A stretch of DNA of 64,000 nt, taken from assembly GCA_963734545.1 (NCBI GenBank), contig CAVTHO010000008.1, forward strand, positions 96,001 through 160,000. Direction: 5' to 3'. How positions within the stretch are numbered: the first letter of the stretch is position 1; every line of letters begins with the position of its first letter. Of the stretch, positions 7,255 through 33,644 are shown piece after piece. The stretch comes from an uncultured Spirochaetota bacterium (GTDB lineage Bacteria > Spirochaetota > Spirochaetia > SZUA-6 > Fen-1364). The notes under the pieces are model-generated. The model was not told where the DNA came from, did no database searches, and saw nothing but the letters and a program-made list of their open reading frames with translations. The translations under genes and the position numbers were made by a program.

Positions 7255-7314
7255 ATGCTTCAGTATCGAATCTGCGGCCGAGGTCGGGAATCCAGTCAGC
7301 GGGGCTCCCGAGTC

Positions 7315-9159: not shown

Positions 9160-10134
9160 ATGGCGATTGTCATAATCCGCTCTCCCGCCCACAAACCGTG
9201 GAGGAGCAGGGGGACGTATCGGTTGATCGAGGCCGGCCTGAGGCGAAGGTGGGAGAATGTATACTCGATTCGTGCCGCCGACGAAGTGGAGTTGAACGCC
9301 CGCCTGCAGCCCGGCGGTTCCGCTCCTCCTCCTTTCGTTTTCAACATCGCTGAGTACCTTGACGAAAGACACACGCATGGATTCATTCCCGGCCTGCTCG
9401 ATTCATGGGGTATCCCGCATCTCGGCTCATCCGCGGCCTCTGTTTCCAGGTGTCTTGACTGGGGACTGGCCAGGGAACTTCTCTTGCAAAAGGGCTTGCC
9501 GACGCCTCGCTCTTTCGTCACGAAGCCGCCCGATCCGCAGATGCATGCACATGCCGAATCCATAGGATACCCCCTCCTGGTCAAACCCCTGCGGAAGGTC
9601 GGACGAGCGGGGGTCGGCAAAGCCATTCTTGCGCACGACCCCGAAACCCTGAAAGAAGCAGTTCGGCGGCTGTCCCGCACATATCTTCGACCGCTTCTGG
9701 TTGAAGAGTACATCGACGGAGAACACATCCGTGAGTTCAAGGTTGGAGTTGTCGGGAACACGAGGCGCATGCATCTTCCGATCGAGATCGATTGGGCGCG
9801 TATGAGCATGAATGCGCGGATATCAGGCATTGATGCGATGAGGATAGACCCCGAGATCATGAAACCGGTACTGGAATCGGGAACCGCTGCAGCCCTCCAC
9901 GACCTCGCGGACCGAACATTCGACGCGCTGGAGGCATCGGATCTCGCGCGAGTCGACATCCGGGCCAGAGGCGATCAACCGTTCGTACTCGGCATCAATG
10001 TGCTGCCAGGTCTGGGTCCGAGCAGCGTTCTGCCGCTGGCCGCATGGAGACTTTACGGACTGGATCATGGCGATTTCATTCGACTGCTCGCAAAGGAGTC
10101 AATCATGCGCCAGGGTTTGCTCGCTATTGCGTGA
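9160..10134 (+). CDS. D-Ala-D-Ala ligase-like ATP-grasp protein (degenerate active site)
   Basis: FNIAE, YPLLVKP, LVEEYIDG, ARVDIR and INVLPGL motifs. Confidence 0.75.
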   Translation: MAIVIIRSPAHKPWRSRGTYRLIEAGLRRRWENVYSIRAADEVELNARLQPGGSAPPPFVFNIAEYLDERHTHGFIPGLLDSWGIPHLGSSAASVSRCLDWGLARELLLQKGLPTPRSFVTKPPDPQMHAHAESIGYPLLVKPLRKVGRAGVGKAILAHDPETLKEAVRRLSRTYLRPLLVEEYIDGEHIREFKVGVVGNTRRMHLPIEIDWARMSMNARISGIDAMRIDPEIMKPVLESGTAAALHDLADRTFDALEASDLARVDIRARGDQPFVLGINVLPGLGPSSVLPLAAWRLYGLDHGDFIRLLAKESIMRQGLLAIA

Positions 10135-10216: not shown

Positions 10217-11371
10217 TCAGTACCGGAAGAGTGCGGCACACCCTGAACCGCCCGGGACTTCCCCCGGGCTCACCACGAAGACGGTCCCCCCATTCTTCAG
10301 AGTGTGCACGGCGGCCAGGTCCAGGAGGTCCTCTCCCTCCTCTTCATTGGTACCGGTGAGGGTGACCAGGCCCGTCGAGCGGTCAAAGCGTCCCCACTCG
10401 CTGCGGCCGTCCGCAAGGAACAGCGTCTCCACTCTCTTGTAGACTGCAGCGGGGACGATCTCCTGGATGGCAGGTGAAGCCTTGCCCGTCGCCGAGAGCA
10501 TACGGAATGACTCCGCTTTCTGCGCCTCGATTGCCTTGAAAGATGGCTCCACCACTTTCCATGCCGCCGCGTGCAGCTCCTGCGCGCTCAATTCCTCCGC
10601 GTTCGCATCCACCCATTTATCCATGAGGGCGGAAAGAGAGCTGACTCCCCGGTAGATCGGACAGAGATACTCCAGACCGATCGACACGAGTGGCGCCCGT
10701 TCCTCGCGCAGGAACCGGCTCACCGCTCTGTCGACCCGCCGATAATACCGTGCGATTTCCTCCTTCTCCCGCTCCTTCCCTTCCCCCTGTCCGTGGAATA
10801 CCCCCGGATAGGGCCCTCCCGCAGGGCGTGTCCCTGCGATGGTATGCAGTTGGAGCCGCCCATGGGTTCGCCCACGGCCGGGCGCCATGTCCGCGGCGGC
10901 CGGCAGCCGCGGCAGGGCCTCGATGACGCTGTAACGGGTCCCGAGGTAGAGCCGCGCGCTTCCGCTGCCGAGCGCCAGCGCATAGAACCTCCCGTTGCCG
11001 CTGAAGAGGGAGAACAGGGGCTTCAAGTGGAGACGCCTTCCAAGCACGACGTTCTCCTCAAATGTGACAGGCACGCAAAAGCTGAAATATCTGCGGGGAG
11101 TACGAAACAGCGCCAGTCCCCCCATCTGATGCTCCCAGAATTGCTTGTCTGTCTGGAGGCGTGCCAGAGGGGAAAGCAGGTCGGCCACTTCACGGTCCTT
11201 GAATCTCCGCCCGTGCAGCAGCTCCGTCGCCCTTGCAAGCATGTTCTTGAAGCGGATCGAGTTCTGCTGGACTTCCGGACCGGAGCGGAAGGCAGGCAGA
11301 TAGAGAGAAAGGCATACGGTGTCCTGTATCCGGGAGAGTGCCTCGACGTCGCGATTGGAAATCACCTCCAT
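10217..11371 (-). CDS. baeRF3/baeRF7-type aeRF1 homolog (Balon-like)
   Basis: CLSLYLP, IRFKN, GLALF, LKPL, FHGQG, RVETLF, DLLDLAAVHTLKNGGTV and AALFRY motifs; no GGQ. Confidence 0.8.
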   Translation of the reverse strand: MEVISNRDVEALSRIQDTVCLSLYLPAFRSGPEVQQNSIRFKNMLARATELLHGRRFKDREVADLLSPLARLQTDKQFWEHQMGGLALFRTPRRYFSFCVPVTFEENVVLGRRLHLKPLFSLFSGNGRFYALALGSGSARLYLGTRYSVIEALPRLPAAADMAPGRGRTHGRLQLHTIAGTRPAGGPYPGVFHGQGEGKEREKEEIARYYRRVDRAVSRFLREERAPLVSIGLEYLCPIYRGVSSLSALMDKWVDANAEELSAQELHAAAWKVVEPSFKAIEAQKAESFRMLSATGKASPAIQEIVPAAVYKRVETLFLADGRSEWGRFDRSTGLVTLTGTNEEEGEDLLDLAAVHTLKNGGTVFVVSPGEVPGGSGCAALFRY

Positions 11372-11477
11372 GCCCGCCTCCTTCGTGAGAAAGTCACGGG
11401 CCGGGGATTGGTCCCCCGCCCCGTGACAGGGTGAGGCTGACTCGGCGCCCCGGGTATCCCAAATCACCTCGATTTCC

Positions 11478-11495
11478 TGTCGAATTTTTTCTACA
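11478..11495. promoter_or_regulatory. Near-perfect 18-bp palindrome between divergent genes
   Basis: TGTCGAA-TTTT-TTCTACA; TACCTT at 11539-11544 on the + side. Confidence 0.65.
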
Positions 11496-11565
11496 TCGGT
11501 GGATGAAAGTAGGTATGGCTTCTCACCATCATAGAACGTACCTTGTCCATGGAGGAAAGACGGAA

Positions 11566-11935
11566 ATGCGAAAGCCACGCCATTTCCTCGCGTCGGCGAT
11601 CTCCCGGCTGCCAGGCGTGAGGACAATTGCCTTGATCGGCAAAAGCGGCACAGGAAAAAGCTTTCGCGCGCGGATCATAGCTGAAAAATAGGGAATAGAA
11701 CTGATTGTCGACGACGGCCTTCTCATCATGGGCGGCAGCAACGAGGGACGAGCTGATGACTGCGTTACGACATCGACGCAGGCATCGGCACGCCATACCC
11801 ATGCCGGCGGTTCATATCAGGCTTCCGTTTCTCTCCTCGATCCTGGAGAAATTCTCGGGACTGTTGTTCGATGAGATCATGCTCACGGTCGAAAACATAG
11901 GCCCCGCCGGAGGGCCTGAGCTCGACCGAGGCTGA
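11566..11935 (+). pseudogene. P-loop ATP-binding protein remnant (premature stop and internal deletions)
   Basis: LIGKSGTGKSFRARIIAEK*GIELIVDDGLLI, then ATRDELMTALRHRR..HAIPMPAV and EKFSGLLFDEIMLTVE in another frame. Confidence 0.65.
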
Positions 11936-12021
11936 CCATGGCGGCACACATGGATTCCCTTGCTTCGAGGGGACCAAGACGCTATCATTCCCGAACTCGT
12001 TCGCAAGGAGCCGACGTCAGG

Positions 12022-13245
12022 ATGCGATTTTCGCTGCCCACATTCACGCGCGCCATCATCTCCTCGGCCGGCAGGCTCTTCCAACCGCGGCCCAGGACGG
12101 GATCCGCAAAAGCATCGCGGGCGGAGACTGGTCCATACGTGAGTCGAATCGTGTCCGACGCGATGCTTCTGAACGAAATTCCGTCTCCGACGGAACACGA
12201 AGCGGCGCGGACCGAGTACATCCTCCAGAGACTAGGCGAGTTCGGCTATCCGAATTGCTCGCTTGACGAGTTCGGCAACGTCACTGCCATCGTCCCCGCG
12301 CGCGAAAACATCGATGAGCACGTCCTCCTGTTCGCGGACATCCGGTGTGAAGACTACTCACCCATTGACAGCATGACCCGCCTGGAGCCCGACCGCGTAG
12401 TCGGACAAGGCATCGCGGAAAGCGCCATCGGCGCCGCCGGACTCATGGTGCTTGCCGAGTATCTTGCTCGAAACGAAATTCAGTACAATCGGCCCGTGAT
12501 TTTCCTGTTCACTTCCTTCGACCCGGGAGAGCGCGAAACGCAGCCCCTCGAGCTCTTCATGCAGAGTTGGAAGGAGCGTGTCCGTTTTGCGGGTCACGTC
12601 CGGGGTCTGGACCTCGGACGCATTGAGGACAGCCCGCTGGGTACGTGCAAGCTGTCCATCGAGATCCGCACAGAGCAGCGGGAGGTATTCGGAGCGGAAC
12701 GCGCGATATCCGCCATCAGGGTGATCTCAACTATTGCGAGCAGGCTCGGAAGCATCCACTGGGACAGCGCGAACGACACGTTCCTCAACATTGCACGCGT
12801 CGAGGCGGGAGTTGGTTTTGGGTGGCACGCTTCGGAAGGCGTCCTGGAGCTGGAAGTGTTCTCACCGAGCGCCGGCGCGCTGGACATGGCAAGGAAGGCG
12901 GTGGAGGCGACGATCCGCGGCGGCGCGGAAGAATTGGGCGCTTCCGTGGACATCGCTGTCAAGGCCTTCCTCCCTGCCGGCAACCCGCAGATCAACGCGG
13001 AGCTGAACACGATCGTGAGGGGCGTGCACGAGCGGCTCCGCGTCAAATCCGTTCCCGTCTCTCTGCCAGGGTACGCCTCATTCCTCAACTCCCTCGGCAT
13101 CCCCGCGGTGACGCTCGGTATGACCACCGGCAGGAAGACACTAGCGGAGGAATACATCGAGATCCGACCCCTGGAGACGGGGTTTCGTCAGCTGCTGGCA
13201 TTCCTGGACGACTGCGCCGGATGGACCGAGGACGCGCATCGGTGA
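12022..13245 (+). CDS. M20/M25/M40 metallopeptidase-like protein lacking the metal ligands
   Basis: EIPSPT.HE..R, DEFGNV, dimerisation domain, GIPAVTLG; stop overlaps the gpgS start. Confidence 0.7.
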   Translation: MRFSLPTFTRAIISSAGRLFQPRPRTGSAKASRAETGPYVSRIVSDAMLLNEIPSPTEHEAARTEYILQRLGEFGYPNCSLDEFGNVTAIVPARENIDEHVLLFADIRCEDYSPIDSMTRLEPDRVVGQGIAESAIGAAGLMVLAEYLARNEIQYNRPVIFLFTSFDPGERETQPLELFMQSWKERVRFAGHVRGLDLGRIEDSPLGTCKLSIEIRTEQREVFGAERAISAIRVISTIASRLGSIHWDSANDTFLNIARVEAGVGFGWHASEGVLELEVFSPSAGALDMARKAVEATIRGGAEELGASVDIAVKAFLPAGNPQINAELNTIVRGVHERLRVKSVPVSLPGYASFLNSLGIPAVTLGMTTGRKTLAEEYIEIRPLETGFRQLLAFLDDCAGWTEDAHR

Positions 13246-14222
13246 AAGGAGAGAGTGCCATCCTGCGTGCCACGTTCCATCACGAGGACTTCAAGGACAA
13301 GGCGGAGCTCGTGAGGCAGAAATTGAGCCAGGGTCTGAAGATCTCTCTCGCGTTCCCCACTCTGAACGAAGAGGCGACCATCGGCAAGGAGGTCCTGGTA
13401 TTCAAGACCGAGCTGATGGACCGATTCCCGCTCCTGGACGAGATCGTCGTTATTGATTCGGGCTCCTCGGACGGAACGCGCGATGCGGCGACGTCCAACG
13501 GGGCACGGGTGTTCTCCTCGCGCGACATCCTGAAGAGTCACGGCACGTTCCGCGGCAAGGGGGAGAACCTCTGGAAAAGCCTGTACGTCCTCGAAGGCGA
13601 CATCATTGTCTGGATCGACGCGGACATCAGCAACATTTCTCCCAAGTTCGTCTACGGTCTGCTGGGTCCCCTTCTGCGGGATCCGCGCATCAGCTATGTG
13701 AAAGCATTCTACGAGCGGCCTTTCCGCTCCTCGGGCGAGCTTCTTCCCGTGGGGGGAGGCCGGGTCACTGAAATCCTCGTGCGCCCGCTTTTCTCCCTCT
13801 TCTATCCTGAACTGGCGGGCCTCGTTCAGCCCCTCAGCGGAGAGTACGCCGGCCGCAGGTCCCTGCTGGAGCAGCTGCCCTTTTCCGTAGGATACGGAGT
13901 GGAGCTGGGTCATCTTCTCGATATCTACCATGGCGCGGGGATCCAGGCCATCGCCCAGGTCAACATGGATCGGCGGGTCCATCGAAACCAATCGCTGCAG
14001 TCCCTCGGGAAGATGTCGTTCGGGATCCTTCAGACCTTCCTCGGCAGGCTCGGAAAGTACGGGGATGGGCGGCTGCCGGTGGACATCGGCAGTCGCTACC
14101 TCTCCGTGTCATTCACCGACGCGCAGCCGCGTATGGATCAGGTCGAAGTTTCCTCCGAGGAGAGGCCGCCGATGATTGAAGTGGATGAATACAGGAAGAA
14201 GTTCCATCCCGCTCCTTCATAG
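13242..14222 (+). CDS. gpgS: Glucosyl-3-phosphoglycerate synthase (GT81)
   Basis: PTLNEEATIG, DSGSSD, GKGENLWKS, WIDAD, GGRVTE, QPLSGEYAGRR and GYGVE motifs; GTG start at 13242. Confidence 0.9.
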   Translation: MKGESAILRATFHHEDFKDKAELVRQKLSQGLKISLAFPTLNEEATIGKEVLVFKTELMDRFPLLDEIVVIDSGSSDGTRDAATSNGARVFSSRDILKSHGTFRGKGENLWKSLYVLEGDIIVWIDADISNISPKFVYGLLGPLLRDPRISYVKAFYERPFRSSGELLPVGGGRVTEILVRPLFSLFYPELAGLVQPLSGEYAGRRSLLEQLPFSVGYGVELGHLLDIYHGAGIQAIAQVNMDRRVHRNQSLQSLGKMSFGILQTFLGRLGKYGDGRLPVDIGSRYLSVSFTDAQPRMDQVEVSSEERPPMIEVDEYRKKFHPAPS

Positions 14223-14290
14223 GTAGTATAAATTCGACAGAAGAATCGTTGAATTGCTGACTCCTCGTCGCATCCGGCAGCGGCTATTCT
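14222..14290 (+). promoter_or_regulatory. Regulon promoter upstream of the asnB operon
   Basis: GGTAGTA-TAAA-TTCGACA at 14222-14239; TGACT at 14258-14262; TATTCT at 14285-14290. Confidence 0.6.
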
Positions 14291-14453
14291 TTCCTCAACT
14301 GTACAGCGAAGCAAGGCCCGCAGAAAGCACGTTCCGGGTCGAAGGATTGTCCTTGCCCAAGAGTGAATGAGCGACTTCATCCGCCAATCCCATTGTCTTT
14401 GGCTGCACCGCAGCCGAGGATCGCGCTATTCCACCCAGAAAGGAGCTCTGCGA

Positions 14454-16016
14454 ATGTGTGGTGTTGTGGCAATGCAGGGCCAGACCGACAAGCAACAGGT
14501 ACATGAAATGATGGCCCGGATCAAGCACCGGGGGCCAGACGGAGAGGGTCTCCTGGAGATCGGCCAGTCCCTGTTGGGACATGTGCGGCTGGCAATCCTG
14601 GATCTATCAGGCGGCGCGCAACCGATGACCAACGAGACCGGCGACCTGGCTGTCTCGTTCAATGGTGAGATATACAACCACCTCGATCTCCGCCGTGGTC
14701 TGCAAGATCGACATGTTTTCCGCACCCGTTCCGACACCGAGGTTCTCCTTCATCTCTACGAGGACGTCGGTGAGGACATGCTGGATCGCCTTGACGGCAT
14801 GTTTGCCATTGCCGTGGCGGGGAGGCATGGCCTTCTCCTGGCGAGAGACCCTCTTGGAATCAAGCCCCTGTACATCGGAAGGAGAGCCGGCTCATTCTAC
14901 GCCGCAAGCGAACTGAAGGCCTTCCCAGCGGTAGACACCATCGAGATGCTGCCGGCAGGTCATGCCGTCCTGGCAGGCGGCACGCCTTGGCGATTTGCCC
15001 GTCCGTTTCCTCCCCAGACGTTTCTGAGGTCCCCGACTCTGGAAGAGATACTCGCCGAAATCCGTCTTCGACTGGAGAAAGCCGTCCAGAAGCGTCTCAT
15101 GAGCGACGTGCCTGTAGGGGTCTACCTTTCCGGCGGACTCGATAGCAGCCTCGTAGCGGCATTGATGCGGCCGCACACGGTCACGTTGCATTCGTTCACC
15201 GCCGGCATGGCGGGTGCTCCCGACCTCGACGCCGCGCGGCAGGTCGCGCACTACTTGCACACGGAACATCATGAGTTGGTGTACGCCTCCGAGGACGTGC
15301 GTCGAGTGCTTCCAGAAGTGATTCGGCAAATGGAATCGTTTGATGCGCCGCTGGTGCGGTCGGCTGTCCCGATGTACTTCATCTCCAAGTTGGCCGCCGA
15401 GCACGTCAAAGTCGTGCTTTCCGGCGAAGGCGCGGATGAGCTTTTCGCGGGCTACAGCTACCTCTCCCGCATCGGGGGCCGGGCCAGACTGAAGAAAGAG
15501 CTGGCAGACATCACGCTTCGACTCCAGGACACGAATCTCCAGCGCGCCGACCGCATGAGCATGGCACACGGTCTGGAAGCCCGGGTGCCCTTCCTCGACA
15601 TGAACTTGGTTCGCTACACGAGCCGTCTCCCTGCCGAATGGATCGAACCCCGGCCGGACCGTCCGGAGAAATGGATACTGCGCGAGGCCTGCAAGGGCCT
15701 CCTGCCGGATGAGATCATCAATCGCAGGAAGATGAAGTTTTCGGAGGGCGCGGGATCATCCGAGGTGGTGGCAGAAATCGCCCGCGGCTCAATCGGAACC
15801 AAGCAGTTTGAACGCGAGAAGCAGATTGCCAAGGACATTGTGTTGAGATCGCCGGAGGAATTGTACTACTACCGCATCTGGAGGGATGTCATGGCAGCGC
15901 ACATAACGCCGAGCATGGTGGGGCGAACGTTGGACAGGTCCGCGGCGGCAGGTGAAGCCGCCCTCGACAATACCGATGAGGACATGAAGGAGCACAGACG
16001 GCGATGGCAGGACTGA
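14454..16016 (+). CDS. asnB: Asparagine synthase (glutamine-hydrolysing) family amidotransferase
   Basis: MCG start, HRGPD, NGEIYN, SDTE, LSGGLDSS, SGEGADELFAGY and RVPFLD motifs. Confidence 0.9.
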   Translation: MCGVVAMQGQTDKQQVHEMMARIKHRGPDGEGLLEIGQSLLGHVRLAILDLSGGAQPMTNETGDLAVSFNGEIYNHLDLRRGLQDRHVFRTRSDTEVLLHLYEDVGEDMLDRLDGMFAIAVAGRHGLLLARDPLGIKPLYIGRRAGSFYAASELKAFPAVDTIEMLPAGHAVLAGGTPWRFARPFPPQTFLRSPTLEEILAEIRLRLEKAVQKRLMSDVPVGVYLSGGLDSSLVAALMRPHTVTLHSFTAGMAGAPDLDAARQVAHYLHTEHHELVYASEDVRRVLPEVIRQMESFDAPLVRSAVPMYFISKLAAEHVKVVLSGEGADELFAGYSYLSRIGGRARLKKELADITLRLQDTNLQRADRMSMAHGLEARVPFLDMNLVRYTSRLPAEWIEPRPDRPEKWILREACKGLLPDEIINRRKMKFSEGAGSSEVVAEIARGSIGTKQFEREKQIAKDIVLRSPEELYYYRIWRDVMAAHITPSMVGRTLDRSAAAGEAALDNTDEDMKEHRRRWQD

Positions 16017-17002
16017 GGATCGGCTTGCTGCAAAAAAAACGCGGAAACTACGCGCTCCAGGAGAAATATGCCGGTCAAAGCGGGGTCGTCGACAACACAA
16101 CGGCCGAGGTTGAACATCACAGACAAGCGCTGACCGACGCCGGCTATCGGCCTCACATCATCCATTGGGGACCCGATTTCGCCCGCGAGATTCGGGGTGT
16201 ACCGGTTGACCTTGTCTTCAATGTTTCCAGCCTCGTCGAGGCCGCGATGCTTGAGGAAATGGAAATTCCTTACGTCGGATCCGACACCCCCGCAATCGCC
16301 GTTACGTTGAATAAGTCGCTGGCAAAAAGGCTCTGGCAGAAAGAAGGGATACCGACGTCACCTTTTCGCGTGGCCGGGTCGGCAAAGGACTGTGAGATTT
16401 TTCGGAAGAATCCGCCATTCGAATATCCGCTTTTTATCAAACCAACGGCCGGCCGAGGAAGCGCGGGAATCGACCCAACATCGATCGTCCATGATTACGA
16501 TCAGTTGGTCAGCGGAGTCGTACGACGACTGGAAGCCATCAAGCAGCCGGTTCTCATAGAAAAACTGCTGGTGGGAAAAGAAGTCACCCTGGGGGTTGTT
16601 GGAAATCTTGAGGCGCGGGTCCTGCCCCCGCTCGAGATTGCATATCGAAAAGGAGATGTCACGCTGACTTTTGAAAAAAAAGAATTGGACGACGATTCAT
16701 TTTTCTGTCCCGCGCGATTGACCTCTGAAGAGTGGCGTTTGATGCAGACCCTGACGCTTCAAGCCTATCACGCTTTGGGCATGAAGGACTTCGGCAGAAT
16801 AGATACGATATTGACCAACGAAGGGCCTTTCCTGCTGGAGGGCAATGCCTTCGCAGGATTGATGTGCACGCCAAAAGAGAAGCCTCGCAGTTACATGGGC
16901 TTTATGGCTCGTGCGGACGGGATGGACAGAAAGGATCTGCTCCATGAGATCATCCAGGGTGCCGTCAGGAGATTGAGCGCAGCCTCCAGGGGTGCGGTTT
17001 AG
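16004..17002 (+). CDS. D-Ala-D-Ala ligase-like ATP-grasp enzyme
   Basis: IPYVGS, NKSLAK, FIKP..GRGSAGI, GRID and LLEGN motifs; overlaps the asnB end. Confidence 0.85.
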   Translation: MAGLRIGLLQKKRGNYALQEKYAGQSGVVDNTTAEVEHHRQALTDAGYRPHIIHWGPDFAREIRGVPVDLVFNVSSLVEAAMLEEMEIPYVGSDTPAIAVTLNKSLAKRLWQKEGIPTSPFRVAGSAKDCEIFRKNPPFEYPLFIKPTAGRGSAGIDPTSIVHDYDQLVSGVVRRLEAIKQPVLIEKLLVGKEVTLGVVGNLEARVLPPLEIAYRKGDVTLTFEKKELDDDSFFCPARLTSEEWRLMQTLTLQAYHALGMKDFGRIDTILTNEGPFLLEGNAFAGLMCTPKEKPRSYMGFMARADGMDRKDLLHEIIQGAVRRLSAASRGAV

Positions 17003-17119
17003 CATGGGCTATTGCGCGAAGGCTCCTTGCGCTCGCCAGGGAATTACGCACATGATGTGGCAACGGAGCGCAGAGACCCGGAAGGAACCAGGGGAGTCAG
17101 GCAGAAGGAGGGGCGGGAA

Positions 17120-19024
17120 ATGGAAGGGAGCACGAGCCCTTCGGACCGGTTCGGCCTCATCAAGCCCAGCGTGGATGCGCACGTGCTGGGAGTCACCTCG
17201 ATCGGAGAATTGCTCGTCGAATGCGGCAAAGAGGTGGCCTATGCCCCCGCGGAGGTGTGCCGCGCCTGTGACAGGCCCGAAGGGGAACGCGAGTCCGCCG
17301 CAATCGAAACATGGATTCGCGGCGAGCGGATCACGCAGCTCGGGTTCTCCTACCGCCTGAGCCCGGAAGACGGCGTGGAGCTTCTTGCGCGCCTCACGCG
17401 CCAGCTCGAGCGCCGCTCGTTGTTTGCAGACCAGGGAGGGATGGTGCGCGCGCTCTATTTCGCCGGCCTCCCCGCCGCATGCCGGCTGGCCAAGGAGCGG
17501 GTGCCCCGGATCGCGGCGGTCTTCGACGGGGAGGAAACTCCCCAGGAAACCCTTGCACGGCTCGGCATGCGGCGCGCCGCCCTGCCCGAAGAGTCGGCGC
17601 GCGCGCTGGCGTATGACAGTGACAGGCTCGCGTTCGGTGAAGAGATAGTCCGCAGGGCGGACTACCTCGCACTGCCTCCGCTCGACCGGAGCGGCTACCC
17701 GGGATTCGGAAAGGCAGAAGACAGCGTCCGTGCACGGCTCGGCCACGCCGCGCTGGCGGGGGCGCTCCCCCTGTATCGTGCCCACATGGGAGAGTACCTG
17801 CCGGACCGGGAAGAAGCGGTCAGACGCTTCCTCCAGTGGACCCGGGAGATGGCCGCCCGGGGTCACCTCGATGTCCTCTCCATCGGGAGCTCGCAGCTCT
17901 CCCAGTCCAGGTTCGGAGAGGACTGGGGTGACAGCACCAACGGCGGCGGGGTGCCGCTGAGCTCTCCCGAGGAGTTTGCCGCCGCATGGGCCGCGGCGCG
18001 CCCCATGCTCGTCCGCTCGTATGCCGGCACCAGGAACCTGGCGGCAATGGCGCGGATGAACGAGGAGACGATCCACAACGCGTGGCATGCCCTGTCGATC
18101 TGGTGGTTCTGCAAAACGGACAACCGTGGTCCCTATCCGCTGCGGGAAAACCTCGACCAGATGCTCGCCGCCCTTCGCTATATCGCGTCGGTCGGCACAC
18201 CCTTTGAGCCGAATGTTCCCCACCACTTCGCCTTCCGCGGCGCCGATGACGCGACGTATGTCATTTCGGGCTACGTCGCTGCCCGGGCCGCGAAGGCGGC
18301 GGGCGTCCGCTGCCTGATCGCGCAGAACATGTTGAACACGCCGAAGTACACCTGGGGCGTGCAGGACCTGGCAAAGTCCCGGGCGCTCCTGCGCCTTCTC
18401 CGCGGTCTGGAAGACAACACCTTCACCGTTGTCCTGGAAACCCGGGCCGGCCTCGACTACCTTTCCGCGGACCCCTTCAGGGCAAAGTCCCAGCTTGCCG
18501 CGGTCTCGGCCCTCATGGACGACATCGAGCCGCGCAATGACGGCAGTCCGCAGATCGTGCACGTGGTGAGCTGGACCGAGGCAACTCGATTTGCCGATCC
18601 TTCCGTGATTGCCGAAAGCGTTCAGATTTCCAGGCAGGCTCTGGCCGAGTACCGCAGACTGCGGAGGAAGGGACTCATCGACGACATGACGGAAAGCCGC
18701 GAAGCGAATGCCCGCACCGAGGAGCTCGTGGTGGAATGCCGTGCCGTCATTCAGGCAATCGAGAGGTCGATCCCTGATGCATGGACCGCGGCCTCTGCGT
18801 TGTACCGCATGTTTGCCGCCGGCTTCCTCCCGGTCCCGTACCTCTGGGAGTGCAGGGAGGAGCTCACCGGGGCAGTGGACTGGCGCACACGCCTCATCAA
18901 GGGCTCGGTGCGTCTTGTGGATGAGAGGGGAATCCCTTTGACGGCGGCACAGCGTATTGAAAAAGCCCTTCACAACCTGCGGACCCTTCCCCGGTCGAGT
19001 GCCCTCCATGCCGCGGAACAATGA
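17120..19024 (+). CDS. Cobalamin-binding protein, fused glutamate-mutase S+E-like
   Basis: DAHVLG (DxHxxG), GFSYRL and YFAG in the B12 domain; C-terminal TIM-barrel with GlmE-like segments. Confidence 0.7.
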   Translation: MEGSTSPSDRFGLIKPSVDAHVLGVTSIGELLVECGKEVAYAPAEVCRACDRPEGERESAAIETWIRGERITQLGFSYRLSPEDGVELLARLTRQLERRSLFADQGGMVRALYFAGLPAACRLAKERVPRIAAVFDGEETPQETLARLGMRRAALPEESARALAYDSDRLAFGEEIVRRADYLALPPLDRSGYPGFGKAEDSVRARLGHAALAGALPLYRAHMGEYLPDREEAVRRFLQWTREMAARGHLDVLSIGSSQLSQSRFGEDWGDSTNGGGVPLSSPEEFAAAWAAARPMLVRSYAGTRNLAAMARMNEETIHNAWHALSIWWFCKTDNRGPYPLRENLDQMLAALRYIASVGTPFEPNVPHHFAFRGADDATYVISGYVAARAAKAAGVRCLIAQNMLNTPKYTWGVQDLAKSRALLRLLRGLEDNTFTVVLETRAGLDYLSADPFRAKSQLAAVSALMDDIEPRNDGSPQIVHVVSWTEATRFADPSVIAESVQISRQALAEYRRLRRKGLIDDMTESREANARTEELVVECRAVIQAIERSIPDAWTAASALYRMFAAGFLPVPYLWECREELTGAVDWRTRLIKGSVRLVDERGIPLTAAQRIEKALHNLRTLPRSSALHAAEQ

Positions 19025-20201
19025 GCGCCGGGCCCGGCGCGGTGCGGATGCGCGCCTGATTGTCCGGCTTCGGCAGGTGCGCGCAAAAGGTACGGCCGCC
19101 TCCTATTGCGTGATCGGGGCGGGCCACGGCGGGCTCGCCATGGCCGGACACCTCGGCATCCTCGGTTATCCGGTGAACCTCTACAACCGGACGGACGAGA
19201 AACTGGACGGCGTACGCTGGCACGGCGGGATCAAGGTCGGCGGGGCGGTCACCGGCTTCGGCCCGGTCAGGATTGCCACATCCAACATGCGCGAGGCGAT
19301 AGAGGGCGTGGACGTGGTGATGGTTGTCACCCCCTCCACGGCGCACCGCAGCCTCGCCTCCATCATGGCCCCGCTCCTCAGCGACGGGCAGCTCGTCGTG
19401 CTGAACCCGGGCAGGACAGGCGGGGCGCTGGAGCTCCGCAAGGTGTTCCAGGACGCGGGCATGAGCGCCGCGGCCCTCGTGGCGGAGACCCAGACGTTCC
19501 TCTACGCCTCCCGCGCTCTCTCCCGATGGGAGGCCCACATCTTTCGGATCAAGAACGCGGTCCCGTTCGCGACCCTGCCCTCGTTCTGGATACCCGAGGC
19601 GCTCGGGATCCTGAACGGCCCGTTTCCGCAGTTCGTGGCGGGCAGCAATGTCCTGGCGACCAGCCTGGAGAATATCGGCGCGGTCTTTCACCCCGCACTG
19701 ACCATCATGAATGCGAGCTGGATCGAGGCAACGCACGGCGATTTCGACTACTACCTCCAGGGCATCACGCCGTCTGTGGCGAAGATCCTGGAACGAATCG
19801 ACGCGGAGCGCCTTGCGGTGGCTTCCGCGGTGGGCGTCCGCAGCGTCTCGGCCCGGGAATGGCTGTACCTCAGCTACGACTCCCCCGGCAAGGACCTCTA
19901 CGAGGCAATCATGAACACGGGAAGCTACAGGGGCATCAAGGCGCCGCCGAGCATCGATCACCGCTACATCTCGGAGGACGTCCCCATGAGCCTTGTACCC
20001 CTCTCGTCCCTGGGCGCGACGCTCGGCGTGCCCACCCCGGCAATCGACATGATCATTCAGCTCGGTTCGATTCTCCATTCGACCGACTACCGGGCCATCG
20101 GTCGGACCGTGGAAAGCCTCGGGCTCGCCGGCCTCTCGGTCAAGCAGGTACGGCAAATGGTGGCAGGCGCGGGTCGTTCGCGCCTTCAGAAGGGAGCGTG
20201 A
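19008..20201 (+). CDS. NAD/NADP octopine/nopaline (opine) dehydrogenase family protein
   Basis: IGAGHGG, LNPGRTGGA, NIGAVFHP, IDAERLAV, HRYISEDVP and GRTVESLGL motifs. Confidence 0.88.
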   Translation: MPRNNERRARRGADARLIVRLRQVRAKGTAASYCVIGAGHGGLAMAGHLGILGYPVNLYNRTDEKLDGVRWHGGIKVGGAVTGFGPVRIATSNMREAIEGVDVVMVVTPSTAHRSLASIMAPLLSDGQLVVLNPGRTGGALELRKVFQDAGMSAAALVAETQTFLYASRALSRWEAHIFRIKNAVPFATLPSFWIPEALGILNGPFPQFVAGSNVLATSLENIGAVFHPALTIMNASWIEATHGDFDYYLQGITPSVAKILERIDAERLAVASAVGVRSVSAREWLYLSYDSPGKDLYEAIMNTGSYRGIKAPPSIDHRYISEDVPMSLVPLSSLGATLGVPTPAIDMIIQLGSILHSTDYRAIGRTVESLGLAGLSVKQVRQMVAGAGRSRLQKGA

Positions 20202-20203
20202 AG

Positions 20204-20890
20204 ATGCAGGAAACCCTTTCTTCGATCGCCGCATTCGTGGGATCACTCCCGTCGGGGGTCAAGGCGCTGCTCGTGCTCTTCGGCGGCTGGCTGGCGGCAT
20301 ACCTGCTGCGGCTCATCCTGTCATGGCTGCTCGCTCTTGTCCGGTTCAACACATTCTGCGACAAGGTGGGGATCTCGGAGTTCCTCCGCAAGGGTCAGGT
20401 CATCTACCAGCCGTCCCGGCTGGCGGGGATCATTGCCTACTGGACCGTCCTGCTTATTGCATTGTTCCAGATTGCGCGGATCCTCGATATCAAGGTCGTG
20501 ACGTCATTTTCCGACAGGCTTGCCTCCACCGTGCCGGGGCTGCTCGCCGCGGTCTTCATCGGCATCATCGGCCTGGTCATGATTTCCTTCATCGGCAACT
20601 TCGTCATGACGGTGACGCGAACCGCCGGACTCCCGCATGCTGCCCTCCTTGCGCGGGTCGTCAAGACAGCCGGCTATGTCCTGGTCCTTGGTCTTGCGCT
20701 CGAGCAGATCGACCTGAGCAAGACAATGATCAGCTCCATGCTGCAGATCCTTTTCGCGGCAGTATCGTTCGGTCTTGCATTGGCCTTCGGGCTGGGCTGC
20801 AAGGACATGGCGCGTGACGCGGCCACGAGGTTCCTTCAGAATCTGAGAGAGAAGCGGCGCACCGACGGCCGCGCGGACCTCGAAGGATGA
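20204..20890 (+). CDS. TM-helix-repeat (CmpX/MscS-associated) membrane protein
   Basis: Hydrophobic repeats and GLALAFGLGCKD; similar to 29723-30610. Confidence 0.75.
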   Translation: MQETLSSIAAFVGSLPSGVKALLVLFGGWLAAYLLRLILSWLLALVRFNTFCDKVGISEFLRKGQVIYQPSRLAGIIAYWTVLLIALFQIARILDIKVVTSFSDRLASTVPGLLAAVFIGIIGLVMISFIGNFVMTVTRTAGLPHAALLARVVKTAGYVLVLGLALEQIDLSKTMISSMLQILFAAVSFGLALAFGLGCKDMARDAATRFLQNLREKRRTDGRADLEG

Positions 20891-21013
20891 GTCCCGCCGA
20901 GGCGGCTTCATAGGCGCGCCCTCACGCACTCCCGGCCGGACCCCCGCCGAGGCATGGCAGGTGAGCCCCGCGCGGCGGAGAAGTGTTGTCACGATGGGGC
21001 CGAGTCTGCTTGA

Positions 21014-22732
21014 ATGGGACCAATGGGACCTTCCCTCTCTTCTCTTCGCCGTTTGCCGGAGAACACACGGAGCATCATCAATTCGGTTCTCTACGCGGTA
21101 ACTGCCGCCGGTTCCGCGGTCGCGTTTCTATGGCTGACCAATCTCCTTTTCCGGGCGACGATCGAGCGGCTGGCAGCCGGCTCGGTCCTTCTGTTTGTGC
21201 TGGGGAGCCTCGGCGTGATCAGCGTCACGTCCATTGGCGCGGGGGTTCTCATGAGCATGGTCAGCCCGGAGTCTGCCGGCAGCGGAGTACCCCAGCTTAA
21301 GGCCGCATACTGGAAGGATCTGGGTTTTGTCAGACTGCGCTCCGTTGTGGTGAAGTTCGTAGGCGGGGTTCTGACCCTCGGTGGTGGAACGAGCCTCGGA
21401 CGCGAAGGGCCGTCCGTCTACGTGGGCGGCGGTGTCGCGTCAAGCATCGCAGCGGCACTCGGGGTCCCCAAGACGGCCCGACGATTGCCGTCAGCCACAG
21501 GCGCCGCAGCGGCCCTCGCGGCTGCGTTCAACACCCCGCTGGCGGCCATCACTTTCGTACTGGAGGAGATGCTCAACAACGAGTTCGGGAGCCGGGTTCT
21601 GGGCGGCGTGGTTCTTGCCGCAGTCTCCGGAGCGCTGATTGTGCAAGCGTTTCTCGGTCGGCAGCCGGCGTTTTCCCTTCCCGCCGTGGAGGGAGTGACG
21701 TGGCTGATGTACCTCATCCTGCCGATCGTTGCCGGGGTGGCATCACTGATCGGCGTGGCGTTTCAAAGCCTCACCCTCTTCCTGAGGGCGCGAGTGCGCG
21801 ACCGCAGCCGTCTACCGTCATGGCTTCGCCCCCTCTGCGGGGCTCTGGTCACATGGGTCCTCGGATGCGCGGTTTTCATCGCCAACGGGCATACGGGTGT
21901 CTTCAGTCTCGGCTACGGCGACCTGTCCCTTGCCCTCAACAACGGTCTGCTCTGGCAGGCGGCCGGTCTCCTTGTGGCGGCCAAGTTCGTCGCGACCGTG
22001 GCGTCGTATGCGTGGGGCGGCTGCGGGGGAATCTTCTCACCCACACTGTTCCTCGGAGGGCTTACAGGCTTTTTTCTTGCAGGAGTGGCAGGGACATGGA
22101 TCCCCCTTACGGCTGCTGACAGGATCGTGCTTGCGGCCGTCGGCATGAGCGCGTGCTTCAACGCGGTGGTGCGGGCTCCGCTCACCGCCCTGCTGATCGT
22201 CTTCGAGATGACTCATCAGTTTTCGATGGTCCCCGGTCTCATGTTCTGCTCGATCGTCAGCCAGGCGATTGCGCGGCTCGGAGGCCGCCACAACTTCTAC
22301 GATGCGCTTCTCCTTCAAGATGGACACGAACTCATCCGCATCAAGCCGCCGCGGGACCTGGAGAGCTGGCAGAAGCTTCCGGTGTCGGAGATCGCCCGTA
22401 CACGCCCTGTGGTGCTGCCGGACCTGGAGCGATCGACGATCCAGGGCTTCCTCGAGTCCTACCCCTATCAGCGATTCCCCGTGATCATGCGCGGTGTGAT
22501 CAGCGGCATCGTGAGCCGCCAGGAGCTGAAGACCGCGCTGGCATCAAATGCAATCCCGCGCCTGGCAACCCCGGTGCTGTGCTCTCCAGGGGCCAGCGTG
22601 CGCGAGGCCGGGGCTCTGCTGATGGAAAGCAGCGCCGGCATGGTACTGATCCGGGACGATTCGACGGGGGATATCTCCTCGGTCGTTACCCTCCATGATC
22701 TGCTTCGCGCCCAGGCAGCACTGGCCGAGTAG
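21014..22732 (+). CDS. ClC chloride channel/antiporter with CBS domains
   Basis: GSGVP, GREGP, AAFNTP, GGIFSP and FEMT motifs; C-terminal CBS pair. Confidence 0.9.
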   Translation: MGPMGPSLSSLRRLPENTRSIINSVLYAVTAAGSAVAFLWLTNLLFRATIERLAAGSVLLFVLGSLGVISVTSIGAGVLMSMVSPESAGSGVPQLKAAYWKDLGFVRLRSVVVKFVGGVLTLGGGTSLGREGPSVYVGGGVASSIAAALGVPKTARRLPSATGAAAALAAAFNTPLAAITFVLEEMLNNEFGSRVLGGVVLAAVSGALIVQAFLGRQPAFSLPAVEGVTWLMYLILPIVAGVASLIGVAFQSLTLFLRARVRDRSRLPSWLRPLCGALVTWVLGCAVFIANGHTGVFSLGYGDLSLALNNGLLWQAAGLLVAAKFVATVASYAWGGCGGIFSPTLFLGGLTGFFLAGVAGTWIPLTAADRIVLAAVGMSACFNAVVRAPLTALLIVFEMTHQFSMVPGLMFCSIVSQAIARLGGRHNFYDALLLQDGHELIRIKPPRDLESWQKLPVSEIARTRPVVLPDLERSTIQGFLESYPYQRFPVIMRGVISGIVSRQELKTALASNAIPRLATPVLCSPGASVREAGALLMESSAGMVLIRDDSTGDISSVVTLHDLLRAQAALAE

Positions 22733-22857
22733 AAACACCAGGCCCCGAAAAGCCTCAGAGGAGAAGGAGCCTGATCCCCAGCCGCGCCTTCTCAGAAGAG
22801 CTGACGCGCGGGCCTTCGCGCAAACCCGGCCGCCTGCCGGCCGTCCGGGAGAGTATT

Positions 22858-23051
22858 TCGATCATCCACGGTATCGGGCCCCAGAAGTACGAGAGGAATT
22901 TCAGGAAAGGATTGGTCTTCTTTTCTTCAAGCTCGTTCGGACCATACTGGGTCAGCCGCTTCTGCGCGTCGGCTTGACTGAGGCCGTCCGCTGTGGACCC
23001 CAGCGCCGCCTGCAGCTCGGTCATGGAGACGGTCTTCAGATCGTCCTTCAC
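22858..23051 (-). pseudogene. Truncated duplicate of the P3A H+-ATPase N-terminus
   Basis: VKDDLK...YGPNELEEKKTNPFLKFLSYFWGPIPWMIE nearly identical to 2398-2592, followed by unrelated sequence. Confidence 0.85.
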
Positions 23052-23055
23052 AATA

Positions 23056-23424
23056 CTACTCCTCTGAAAGCTTCTCTTCCGGCAGGGCGGGGTCAGTGCG
23101 GCGACTCCGTTGCTCATGCAGCCTTCCGAGCGTGTGCTCGAGCAACCGGATGAGCTTGTCCACTGCGCCGTCGACGGCTTGCTCCACGGTCGCCGCATGA
23201 TGAGTGATCGCGGTGGGCTGATGGTTTTCGAGGCGGGCTTCCATCACGCAGCGTATTGCGTCCTTGCCCCCTTTCTTGTCGCTGTTCTCATCGCTGAGAT
23301 GGACTTCCACCCGCGTGACGTGCTCGCTGATATGGCCCAGGACGCCCTCAACCAGGCTGCTGACGTGAGCGGCCAGCGCCTCATGGCCTTCGATGTTGTG
23401 GTCGGTATTCACCTGGATCTGCAT
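23056..23424 (-). CDS. HPF/RaiA family protein (copy 2)
   Basis: 12 differences in 122 aa relative to 2597-2965 (manual count). Confidence 0.85.
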   Translation of the reverse strand: MQIQVNTDHNIEGHEALAAHVSSLVEGVLGHISEHVTRVEVHLSDENSDKKGGKDAIRCVMEARLENHQPTAITHHAATVEQAVDGAVDKLIRLLEHTLGRLHEQRSRRTDPALPEEKLSEE

Positions 23425-23532
23425 GGTATTCTCCTTTGTTATGATTCAGTCCTATTCACAGTGAAATGCTGGTCCGGGCACCAACTCCTTCCAATATAAC
23501 AAGGCGGATAAAGCTCCGGTGCCGTCTGTACT

Positions 23533-28986: not shown

Positions 28987-29613
28987 TCAGATGGAATTCG
29001 ATGGGGTGGCGGTCTGCGGCCTTTCCATCCCACGCACCACGAGCGCGACCGTCGTTCTGATCTGGGCGCCAAGTCGAATTGCCTTGCGGTCGAAAAGCCA
29101 GAGGAGCACGCTCCCTTCCAGGGCTGCCCCGATGGCGAGCGAGGCGGCGCGCGGGTCGATATCCCTGAACTCCCCGGCCTTGATGCCCTGCGAGATGACC
29201 TCGGCCATCCCGTCAAGAAATGCGGCGAAAAACCGCTGGAAAGCTTTTTTCACTGTGGTGTTGCGAAAGGCGAGCGAATAGTACTCGAAGGTGATTGGAA
29301 GGAATCGACCCATGGTCTCGATGTCCTTGATGATGTGCTCGGCGAATCTCATGAGGCGCTCCCCCGCCGAGCCCTCCGCGGAAGCCTGGCGCCGGATCCG
29401 CTCCGTTTCCGGCTCGAACAGACGCTCCATGATCGCCACGATGATCGCGTCCTTGTTCTTGAAGTACCAGTACAGCAGGCCCTTGCTGCGACCGGACTCT
29501 CTGACGATGTCGTCCATTCGGGCTCCACTGAATCCCTTGCGCGAGAACACTCGAGCGGCCGCGCTGACTATCTCGGACCTGCGCTCTTCGCTGACATCTG
29601 GTCTTGGCGCCAT
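28987..29613 (-). CDS. TetR/AcrR family regulator
   Basis: HTH MDDIVRESGRSKGLLYWYFKNKD. Confidence 0.92.
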   Translation of the reverse strand: MAPRPDVSEERRSEIVSAAARVFSRKGFSGARMDDIVRESGRSKGLLYWYFKNKDAIIVAIMERLFEPETERIRRQASAEGSAGERLMRFAEHIIKDIETMGRFLPITFEYYSLAFRNTTVKKAFQRFFAAFLDGMAEVISQGIKAGEFRDIDPRAASLAIGAALEGSVLLWLFDRKAIRLGAQIRTTVALVVRGMERPQTATPSNSI

Positions 29614-29647
29614 TTCTCCCTGCTCCCGGTGCACAATCGAAATCGTT

Positions 29648-33420: not shown

Positions 33421-33644
33421 GCACCGAGTCCCATTCTGCTGACAGCATCCTGAACGATCTCACTCAGCAGATCCCTTCCGCTCATTCCTTCAGCGCGCGC
33501 CATGAAACCGATGTAGCTGTGAGTGCACATCAGCCCTGCCAAAGCATTCGCCTCGAGCAGGAGAACGCGTGATCCATCCTCCGCGGCGGGAGGAGCCGGA
33601 GCATGATTCGCGGCCGGCCCCTGGACAGCAACAATCCCGCACAC
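33417..33644 (-). pseudogene. Collapsed asnB-start/ATP-grasp-end fusion remnant
   Basis: VCGIVAVQG (cf. MCGVVAMQG) fused to LLEANALAGLMCT-HSYIGFMARAEGM..RDLLSEIVQ (cf. C-terminus of 16004-17002). Confidence 0.85.

Follow-up and report, generated by a model that had tools for sequence, protein, structure and literature searches.

Several described pathways use some of the kinds of enzyme considered here. Pyrrolysine is built by the lysine mutase PylB, the Ddl-like ligase PylC, and the dehydrogenase PylD. A dehydrogenase acts after an aminomutase in the ornithine and lysine pathways, and staphylopine-type pathways end with an opine dehydrogenase. AslA, RacD, and AsnH build amidated D-amino-acid bridges in peptidoglycan, and the osmolyte N-acetylglutaminylglutamine amide (NAGGN) is made by AsnO and Ngg. 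We analyzed a 64,000-nt stretch of DNA from an uncultured Spirochaetota bacterium (assembly GCA_963734545.1, contig CAVTHO010000008.1, positions 96,001 to 160,000; hereafter 'the window') in which five plus-strand genes at 14454-20890 encode an AsnB-type amidotransferase, an ATP-grasp ligase, a putative adenosylcobalamin (AdoCbl)-dependent mutase, an opine dehydrogenase (ODH), and a small membrane protein (Table 1). The nearest analogies in pathway logic are NAGGN synthesis, the Orr/OraSE/Ord route, and PylB/C/D, and the cluster is a member of none of them.

An earlier, sequence-only reading of the window had correctly recognized all four enzyme chemistries (AsnB, ATP-grasp, mutase, and ODH). 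Our comparisons lead us to favor, with moderate confidence, the explanation that the five genes form one biosynthetic operon around a mutase-ODH core and that this operon makes an opine-type, amino-acid-derived metabolite under Na+/Li+ stress.

A mutase-ODH core recurs across bacterial phyla

A scan for the mutase in one genome per species returned 317 relatives, and the analysis covered the best 80 loci. A gene was counted as a neighbor if it was co-oriented with the mutase/ODH pair and no more than 4 kb from it, and the 46 loci with flanks of at least 3 kb on either side were classed as full-flank. The ODH gene is adjacent to and co-oriented with the mutase gene in 73 of the 80 loci (43 of the 46 full-flank loci), and two of the seven loci without it lie at contig ends. 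Adjacency that recurs in 73 unrelated loci is more than chance would produce. By label, the 80 loci span at least 12 phylum-level groups, with names that include Spirochaetota, Planctomycetota, Verrucomicrobia, Kiritimatiellia, Lentisphaerae, Deltaproteobacteria/Syntrophales, Acidobacteriota, and Armatimonadota, as well as Chloroflexota, Gemmatimonas, Omnitrophota, WOR-3, Krumholzibacteriia, Raymondbacteria, Bacteroidetes, and Firmicutes.

The core is frequently accompanied by a ligase gene. An AsnB-type gene is found in the module in 29/80 loci and an ATP-grasp gene in 16/80; one or the other is present in 44/80, and a single locus (L049) has both. This near mutual exclusivity suggests that the two are interchangeable capping enzymes. 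The synteny that the sequence-only reading had proposed to look for in other genomes is therefore there, in the mutase-ODH pair and in the ligases beside it. Membrane proteins are a further recurrent element: a small MscS-related protein is encoded in 29/80 modules and a full-length MscS in 7/80, and 34/80 modules contain an MscS-type protein of either size or a major facilitator superfamily (MFS) exporter. Of the MscS and ClC surroundings that had been singled out in the window, the MscS-type neighbors recur, while a co-oriented ClC gene is near the module in just 3/80 loci.

Two lineages have distinctive surroundings. Four loci labeled Rikenellaceae (L065, L066, L074, and L078) contain a mutase without ODH and have similar open reading frame (ORF) maps; in L066, three genes of methyltransferase type (PEMT-like, LCM, and Methyltransf_11) lie upstream of the mutase and a TonB-dependent receptor gene lies downstream. 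In Treponemataceae/Spirochaetaceae loci (L046, L060, L062-L064, and L071-L073), genes for a class I/II aminotransferase, a rhomboid protein, and a sodium:dicarboxylate symporter, together with argG and argH, surround the module, and an Asp/Glu racemase is encoded on the opposite strand.

The 634-residue protein is probably a fused, GlmE-like isomerase

The protein at the center of the module escapes the profile libraries. It has no Pfam match even at E ≤ 10, none in NCBIfam, and none in the PDB by phmmer at E ≤ 1; a profile of its N-terminal domain compared with PDB sequences likewise returned nothing meaningful. Its family is nevertheless large, with 1,167 hits among 8,000 candidates scored, identities of 55-60% across phyla, and 411 representatives at the 50% identity level (E ≤ 0.001). 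'Cobalamin-binding protein' is the sole name that the sources give it. The same holds for the ESM Atlas, where the mutase occurs only in clusters so named, and where PF02310 is found in 20-26% and PF06368 in 12% of the members of more distant clusters.

Fold comparison is more informative. An AlphaFold (AF2) model from a 50-sequence alignment (pLDDT 93.5, pTM 0.91) predicts a TIM barrel at residues ~197-612, the top match of which is the glutamate mutase chain GlmE 1cb7_B (Foldseek E 1.9e-12; VIA-align Z 28.1, root-mean-square deviation 3.1, 375 residues aligned). Lysine-5,6-aminomutase (Z 26.6) and ornithine-4,5-aminomutase (Z 24.6) come next, and acyl-CoA mutases score Z ≤ 19.5. A comparison by hhalign with five genuine GlmE sequences, taken from genomes of the same phylum, gave a probability of 83% (E 9e-6) over the C-terminal half only. 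The B12-binding domain would occupy approximately residues 1-135 and carries the motif D19-A-H21-V-L-G24 (DxHxxG), of which H21 and G24 are invariant in 17/17 and 30/30 aligned sequences. Folded alone (pLDDT 90.3), this domain finds its best Foldseek match in 4r3u_C/D (E 5.6e-6); the best matches are B12-binding subunits of 2-hydroxyisobutyryl-CoA and methylmalonyl-CoA mutases, and CheY-like receiver domains match too. A distant paralog of the mutase (28-34% identity) passes the Pfam B12-binding model at 45 bits, and the host genome encodes a PduO-type adenosyltransferase and a cobalamin riboswitch. Taken with the model, these features indicate that the 634-residue protein is probably an AdoCbl-dependent isomerase of GlmE-like type in which the S and E components are fused. 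The earlier identification of a B12 mutase was thus right in kind, with support that comes from the fold.

The more specific suggestion of a glutamate mutase that yields beta-methylaspartate is not established. True GlmE, which scores above 690 bits against PF06368 (Met_asp_mut_E), is encoded in 12/151 genomes of the phylum and not in the host genome; the 634-residue protein does not match this model and, by Pfam's definition, stands outside the glutamate mutase family. GlmE residues R66, R100, R149, and E171, which bind the substrate in glutamate mutase, are invariant in all five GlmE sequences. The confident hhalign region spans only GlmE 186-441, and a forced, low-confidence alignment (mact 0.01) pairs R220 with R66, Q262 with R100, Y301 with R149, and D334 with E171. 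Two of the three substrate arginines thus appear to be replaced in this tentative alignment, and with Gln and Tyr at the R100 and R149 positions it is improbable that the enzyme acts on free glutamate. The aligned columns of the B12 domain also contain no invariant lysine. Since this lysine presumably holds pyridoxal phosphate (PLP) in the B12 domain of aminomutases, its absence argues against a PLP-dependent aminomutase of known type, and we set that assignment aside as the less likely one.

A CENDH-type dehydrogenase and an MscS-related membrane protein

The second core gene encodes a close relative of Arthrobacter N-(1-D-carboxyethyl)-L-norvaline dehydrogenase (CENDH). Its product matches Pfam Octopine_DH (PF02317) with 166.9 bits against a cut-off of 30, its N-terminal NAD(P)-binding GxGxxG reads VIGAGHGG, and phmmer aligns it over nearly its full length with CENDH (PDB 1bg6; E 1.8e-75, 257 bits). 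CENDH His202, Arg292, and Asp297, which are presumably the catalytic residues, align with identical residues.

The 228-residue membrane protein is less clear-cut. It matches PF05552 with 35 bits in two stretches and NF033912 with 39.7 bits against a cut-off of 100. PF05552 is its only Pfam match; the models for the pore-lining TM3 and the MscS beta-domain (PF21088 and PF00924) do not match it, and it falls outside the definition of an MscS channel. The designation of this gene as a channel gene consequently holds for the MscS-type transmembrane helices and fails for the beta-domain.

The AsnB-type amidotransferase probably travels with the module

The cluster's AsnB matches Asn_synthase (256.9 bits) and GATase_7 (136 bits) in Pfam, retains the N-terminal nucleophile Cys, and narrowly passes the NF006949 equivalog model (503 bits against a cut-off of 499). 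Among 150 sampled genomes of the phylum, the mutase is present in only one (G057), and this genome alone has a close AsnB ortholog (67% identity). The ortholog shares the strand of the mutase, is 3.4 kb away from it, and carries one internal TAA; five further genomes have AsnB relatives at 31-43% identity. In L009, a locus from the PVC group, a 69%-identical AsnB is encoded 3.8 kb from the mutase. We read these associations as AsnB traveling with the module and possibly serving asparagine supply as well.

Module-linked AsnB-type proteins elsewhere are mostly of another form. Most are ~440-450 aa long and start with M-[A/P/S/N]-G-I-A-G-I, which means that the glutaminase Cys is replaced. Copies that contain the Cys are found in the window, L009, L012, L014, and L061, in a census that leaves out L026 and L049. 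The Cys-less partners match the PDB beta-lactam and carbapenam synthetases 1jgt and 1q15 (E 1.7e-18 and 5.4e-14), but are far nearer to true AsnB in the PDB (E about 1e-45 to 1e-47).

The ATP-grasp family is partnered by an ornithine-racemase-like protein

The cluster's ATP-grasp protein shares just the C-terminal ATP-grasp domain with Ddl (Pfam Dala_Dala_lig_C, 84 bits) and scores below the Ddl cut-offs (NF002378, 121.6 against 243; TIGR01205, 112 against 245.65). As judged from these scores, it is no D-Ala-D-Ala ligase proper and belongs to a distinct conserved family, for which we found 615 hits at 68-74% identity, including metagenome-assembled genomes of Chloroflexota and Bacteroidota. 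Of the 46 NCBIfam models that the ATP-grasp protein matches, PylC is not among the 25 best. The host genome encodes seven Ddl-like paralogs.

A scan of metagenomes with the ATP-grasp sequence found 178 relatives, and the best 80 loci were examined. Directly 3' of the ATP-grasp gene in 65 of these 80 metagenome loci is a gene for a racemase that is 60-63% identical to the product of 32278-33420 in the window. The latter aligns over the full length of the ornithine racemase (Orr) model NF040742 (2-351 of 351) and scores 365.6 bits against a cut-off of 480; by that cut-off it is Orr-like and not Orr. In the window it is encoded ~13 kb from the cluster on the opposite strand, just after a short ORF (33417-33698) whose last ~50 residues are 65% identical to residues 276-326 of the cluster's ATP-grasp protein, and which we take for a second ATP-grasp copy that has been reduced to a relic. 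The ATP-grasp family adjoins ODH in 11/80 metagenome loci and a mutase homologue in 9/80, and in L148 and L149 the genes form a single run of ODH-msc-mutase-ATP-grasp-racemase. It is probable, from this recurrent pairing, that the Orr-like racemase is the pathway's sixth enzyme, one that the sequence-only reading had missed.

Other features of these metagenome loci are as follows. A distant mutase subfamily (28-34% identity, ~560 aa, passing Pfam B12-binding) is encoded beside the ATP-grasp/racemase pair in L094, L101, L116, L121, L131, L144, and L154; ODH (47-51% identity) accompanies it in six of the seven, and L154 has no ODH match. A gene for a histone-deacetylase-family amidohydrolase lies 3' of the Orr-like racemase in 8/80 loci (L093, L113, L116, L121, and four others). 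A group II intron (RF02012, RF00029) is located at L109:6978-7850, just upstream of tandem ATP-grasp and racemase units.

Li+/Na+ riboswitches precede the module in some lineages

The unit of relic, racemase, MFS transporter, and MscS-like protein in the window is preceded by an nhaA-I (Li+/Na+) riboswitch, one of two nhaA-I copies in the host genome. The other (G000:C3:87171-87222, equivalent to L188:1501-1552) precedes a 448-aa ORF that, judged from its sequence, is Na+/H+-exchanger-like. The nhaA-I motif is described in two studies as Li+-sensing, with Na+-sensing variants, and as linked with the transport of cations and with osmotic stress (PMC9646797, PMC9337991). A term look-up in the main texts returned no mention of opine, cobalamin, or asparagine synthetase; the supplementary tables may list such an association.

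The window and the loci, 1.32 Mb in total, gave 11 matches to a covariance model built from six nhaA-I hits. In L016, L036, L039, and L053 the match precedes the first module gene by roughly 110 nt or less, in L025 it is 357 nt upstream, and in L012 about 590 nt; L017 has two copies 2-3 kb upstream, and L005 and L006 have one each on the opposite strand. From these positions, nhaA-I appears to lead the module directly in five or six loci, the sixth (L012) probably. The nhaA-I-bearing loci are labeled Kiritimatiellia, Holophaga, Lentisphaerae, Spirochaetaceae, Akkermansia, and Phycisphaerae. Across the 80 ATP-grasp metagenome loci the same model gave no hit, and an Rfam scan of eight of these loci detected just a group II intron and a tRNA.

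The idea that the product is an osmolyte, raised in the sequence-only reading from the neighboring genes, gains independent support from the Li+/Na+ riboswitches that precede the module in other genomes and from the MscS-type neighbors.

Gene layout and neighborhood of the cluster

As called, the genes of the cluster are co-oriented and mostly overlap or abut, as had been claimed. The AsnB and ATP-grasp genes overlap by 13 nt and the mutase and ODH genes by 17 nt. The spacing from the end of the ATP-grasp gene to the mutase start is ~10-117 nt, depending on whether the mutase begins at 17120 or at an alternative TTG start at 17012; ODH could start at 19008, 19077, or 19110. The cluster does follow gpgS, which ends 231 nt upstream of AsnB, and this arrangement is particular to the window in the sense that a gpgS homologue is near the module in 0/80 loci. 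An idea of a gpgS-linked 'glucosylglyceramide' was dropped on the same count. The single regulon promoter proposed for the cluster could not be substantiated. No site was found in a sigma-70 promoter scan of 11500-23500, no exact word of at least 14 nt from the gpgS-AsnB spacer recurs within the window (words of 11-14 nt were tried), and blastn-short gave no significant short match to the spacer elsewhere in the window. A weak terminator-like hairpin is located at 14267-14284, between gpgS and AsnB. The ClC gene begins 123 nt 3' of the cluster. A look-up of read sets that contain 14223-21013 listed three DNA sets, each with a share of 0.19 or less, and no RNA set.

Table 1. Position and description of the cluster genes and of related features in the window.
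Feature	Coordinates	Strand	Description
gpgS, glucosyl-3-phosphoglycerate synthase	13221-14222	+	NF010496 374 bits, cut-off 262
AsnB-type glutamine amidotransferase / asparagine synthetase	14454-16016	+	520 aa; begins MCGV, Cys2 kept
Ddl-like ATP-grasp ligase	16004-17002	+	332 aa; own conserved family
Putative AdoCbl-dependent mutase	17120-19024	+	634 aa; B12-binding domain and GlmE-like TIM barrel
CENDH-type opine dehydrogenase (ODH)	19008-20201	+	~397 aa; NAD(P)H-dependent
Small polytopic membrane protein	20204-20890	+	228 aa; MscS-type N-terminal transmembrane helices, without MscS beta-domain
ClC chloride channel/exchanger with CBS domain	21014-22732	+	Pfam Voltage_CLC 253.6 bits
MscS-like protein with beta-domain	29723-30610	-	295 aa; PF05552 and PF00924
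MFS transporter	30625-32241	-	Pfam MFS_1; 3' of racemase in riboswitch-led unit
Ornithine-racemase-like PLP racemase	32278-33420	-	380 aa; Pfam Ala_racemase_N 86.6 bits
Putative ATP-grasp relic	33417-33698	-	93-codon ORF; stop overlaps racemase start (ATGA)
nhaA-I (Li+/Na+) riboswitch	34045-34098	-	RF03057 49.6 bits, gathering threshold 37; in trans to cluster

Several further features were observed in this part of the window. A 670-codon open frame on the minus strand (17009-19021) runs exactly antisense to the mutase gene; it is presumably no gene and just reflects how G+C-rich the coding strand is. Upstream of gpgS, 11938-13245 (plus strand) encodes a 435-aa protein with a sub-threshold Peptidase_M28 match (17.6 bits against a cut-off of 21.3), and the 25-nt overlap of its end with the start of gpgS suggests co-translation of the two. 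A 469-aa protein with a bacterial archaeo-eukaryotic release-factor-like (baeRF) domain is encoded at 10217-11626 (minus strand). A GH13 alpha-amylase-family gene at 7255-9039 (plus strand) is followed by a second Ddl-like ATP-grasp gene at 9160-10134 (plus strand). A TetR/BetI-type regulator is encoded at 28987-29634, beside the riboswitch-led unit.

A possible biosynthetic route

What the comparisons show is the gene content, the folds and families, the synteny with its alternative ligases, racemase partner, and channel-type neighbors, and the link to the riboswitch in some lineages; the order of steps, the substrates, and the role of the product as a solute are what we infer in the following scheme. 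The mutase would rearrange a carbon skeleton, either that of an amino acid or the opine's own, and ODH would reductively join an amino group to a 2-oxo acid to give an N-(carboxyalkyl) amino acid. Enzymes that form amides at the expense of ATP, of which the host genome would use two, might then cap carboxylates and so balance charge: AsnB could perform glutamine-dependent capping, and the ATP-grasp enzyme would probably add a D-amino acid, supplied by the Orr-like racemase encoded 13 kb away behind the Li+/Na+ riboswitch. That the ligases consume ATP points to synthesis and not breakdown. The product would most likely be a solute of small size, high solubility, and balanced charge that cells build up under salt stress from sodium or lithium, and the MscS-related membrane protein may release or otherwise handle it.

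A bolder version of this scheme holds that the 634-residue protein is the first AdoCbl mutase to act on an opine, within a new class of compatible solute made when a riboswitch senses Na+ or Li+. ODH would then make an N-(1-carboxyethyl) amino acid, the mutase would shift it to the N-(2-carboxyethyl), beta-alanine-type isomer, and the AsnB-type enzyme, Cys-less in most phyla like beta-lactam synthetase, would amidate this isomer or close a lactam. We consider this version quite improbable.

Full-text literature searches found no paper on this combination of genes, and none that pairs an ornithine racemase with ATP-grasp or a glutamate mutase with an opine dehydrogenase. The enzyme kinds are known; what would be new is this family of AdoCbl isomerases and the pathway setting in which it occurs.

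Alternative explanations

Several observations weigh against a single biosynthetic operon. The cluster's AsnB is the sole AsnB-type gene in the host genome, whose assembly is 89% complete, encodes AsnRS, and gave no AsnA, so that asparagine synthesis may be all that AsnB does. No ligase is encoded in 14 of the 46 full-flank loci. These include L001, the closest relative at 86% identity, where no ligase gene lies within ~7 kb and a two-component system is encoded upstream instead. The ATP-grasp family lacks a nearby ODH in 69/80 metagenome loci, many of them on short contigs. With the riboswitch directly ahead of the module in just ~6/80 loci, most modules must be regulated otherwise, and Rfam found no element in 11000-23000 at E ≤ 1, which leaves the cluster itself without a recognizable regulatory RNA. 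The membrane protein, lacking the MscS beta-domain, may be no channel. The lone AsnB gene and the ligase-free loci would also be understandable if the region were a mosaic of separate units, in which only mutase, ODH, and membrane protein work together, AsnB is a housekeeping enzyme, and the ATP-grasp enzyme and its distant racemase serve some other product and were moved here by rearrangement. The equivalog score of AsnB fits such a mosaic, as does the company that the ATP-grasp family keeps (racemase in 65/80 metagenome loci, ODH in just 11/80), and the relic at 33417-33698 shows that the region has been rearranged in the past. We rate the mosaic as unlikely, though deserving of serious attention, on several grounds: the AsnB and ATP-grasp genes overlap, and the latter ends close to the mutase; ODH, msc, mutase, ATP-grasp, and racemase genes form one run in L148 and L149; the one genome in 150 with a close AsnB ortholog is the one with the mutase, on the same strand and a short distance away; L009 repeats this proximity; and AsnB-type genes lie inside the module in 29/80 loci.

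The remaining alternatives accept a common pathway and assign it another purpose. A fermentative, catabolic route, like those for ornithine, lysine, or glutamate, would run from the racemase through the B12 isomerase to ODH acting in reverse. The closeness of the barrel to lysine-5,6- and ornithine-4,5-aminomutases (Z 26.6 and 24.6, against 28.1 for GlmE), the Orr-like character of the racemase, the position of the dehydrogenase after the aminomutase in the ornithine and lysine pathways, and the labels of the carriers, most of which are apparently anaerobes or sediment-derived, are compatible with it; the ATP-dependent ligases in 44/80 loci, the lack of a thiolase, lyase, or CoA-transferase family among the conserved neighbors, the missing invariant lysine for PLP in the B12 domain, and the combination of cation-sensing riboswitch control with channel and exporter genes make it improbable in our view. 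Cell-wall modification, the alternative offered in the sequence-only reading, would have racemase, D-amino-acid ligase, and amidotransferase build an amidated D-amino-acid peptidoglycan bridge, as AslA, RacD, and AsnH do. Such a role would account for neighborhoods that combine AsnB with a Ddl-like ligase and a racemase of Orr-like or Asp/Glu type, and for the seven Ddl-like paralogs of the host, but it leaves the conserved mutase-ODH core without a role, no Mur, Fem, or transpeptidase family is among the conserved neighbors, the partners are a Li+/Na+ riboswitch, MscS, MFS, and ClC, and so patchy a cross-phylum spread (1/150 genomes in the phylum) would be atypical of wall chemistry. This alternative is therefore weak, and we hold it to be highly improbable. 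Just as little credence is due to an opine-type metallophore, exported for metal capture in the manner of staphylopine, the last step of which also falls to an opine dehydrogenase. An EntS-like MFS_3 exporter gene lies 3' of ODH in L052 and the Rikenellaceae loci have a TonB-dependent receptor after the mutase, but the exporter is found in 1/80 loci, the receptor occurs in four loci without ODH and could equally serve B12 uptake, and the conserved neighbors include no nicotianamine-synthase-like gene. The riboswitch, moreover, senses alkali cations and not transition metals, according to the studies that describe it (PMC9646797, PMC9337991).

If the biosynthetic-operon explanation is correct, the mutase would represent a widespread new family of B12-dependent isomerases, with more than 1,100 sequences in at least 12 phyla, that profile libraries do not see, and the operon would constitute a new biosynthetic route to a salt-stress metabolite; we know of no other B12-dependent route to such a metabolite. 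CENDH-type bacterial opine dehydrogenases, for which we are aware of no physiological role, would acquire one. A biosynthetic operon would also be added to the few genes that Li+/Na+ riboswitches are known to control, and in sediment and anaerobic communities salt tolerance would be tied to the availability of vitamin B12. The explanation is directly testable, since there is a cultured carrier, Jeotgalibaca caeni YN-L-12 (L068), and the operons are compact, with three to five genes.

Comparison with known systems

Of the systems to which the cluster can be compared, NAGGN synthesis shares its logic, as the sequence-only reading had proposed: an amidotransferase (AsnO) works with an ATP-grasp enzyme (Ngg), and under osmotic stress the two yield a peptide-like solute that is amidated. 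The likeness is one of analogy: the AsnO model TIGR03104 gives the cluster's AsnB just 289 bits against a cut-off of 570, the cluster has no GNAT/Ngg-like gene, and its B12 mutase and ODH have no counterpart in the NAGGN system. The pyrrolysine route is analogous in another way, and again no homology is claimed. Three of its chemistries (skeleton rearrangement, D-amino-acid ligation by a Ddl-family enzyme, and NAD-dependent dehydrogenation) correspond to those of the cluster, whereas PylB is a radical SAM enzyme instead of a B12-dependent mutase and the dehydrogenase is of a different family. The beta-lactam and carbapenam synthetases, 1jgt and 1q15, which we take to be Cys-less AsnB homologues, lack the glutaminase Cys as does the module's usual AsnB-type partner in other phyla; the window's AsnB differs in having kept Cys2 and a full glutaminase domain.

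Individual enzymes invite closer comparison. Glutamate mutase (GlmS/MutS and GlmE/MutE; EC 5.4.99.1; 1cb7, 6h9e), which among known systems comes nearest to the key enzyme of the cluster, has the same kind of barrel fold and a DxHxxG B12 domain, is remotely homologous in sequence to the 634-residue protein over the C-terminal half, and has, with S and E added together, about the same size (about 620-634 aa). In the tentative alignment the Arg at R66 and an acidic residue at E171 are kept. Identity is just 14%, however, and there is no PF06368 match. Glutamate mutase consists of two subunits, whereas the mutase here is a single chain with the B12 domain first. True glmE adjoins a ~412-aa gene (L178-L185), putatively that of methylaspartase, whereas the mutase gene here adjoins ODH and ligase genes and never methylaspartase.

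The barrels of the aminomutases OraSE and KamDE are nearly as close as that of GlmE (Z 24.6-26.6), and their pathways (Orr, Ord, and Kdd) resemble the present one in associating an Orr-like racemase with an NAD(P)-dependent dehydrogenase. They differ in that the B12 domain here has no conserved PLP-holding lysine. Where the Orr/OraSE/Ord and KamDE/Kdd systems are concerned, the dehydrogenase here is of the opine dehydrogenase family, and the module has ATP-dependent ligases and channels and no thiolase. The counterpart of ODH is CENDH of Arthrobacter sp. 1C (1bg6), which it matches over its full length and with which it shares the GxGxxG motif and the His/Arg/Asp residues; what sets the present enzyme apart is its place in an operon with a B12 mutase.

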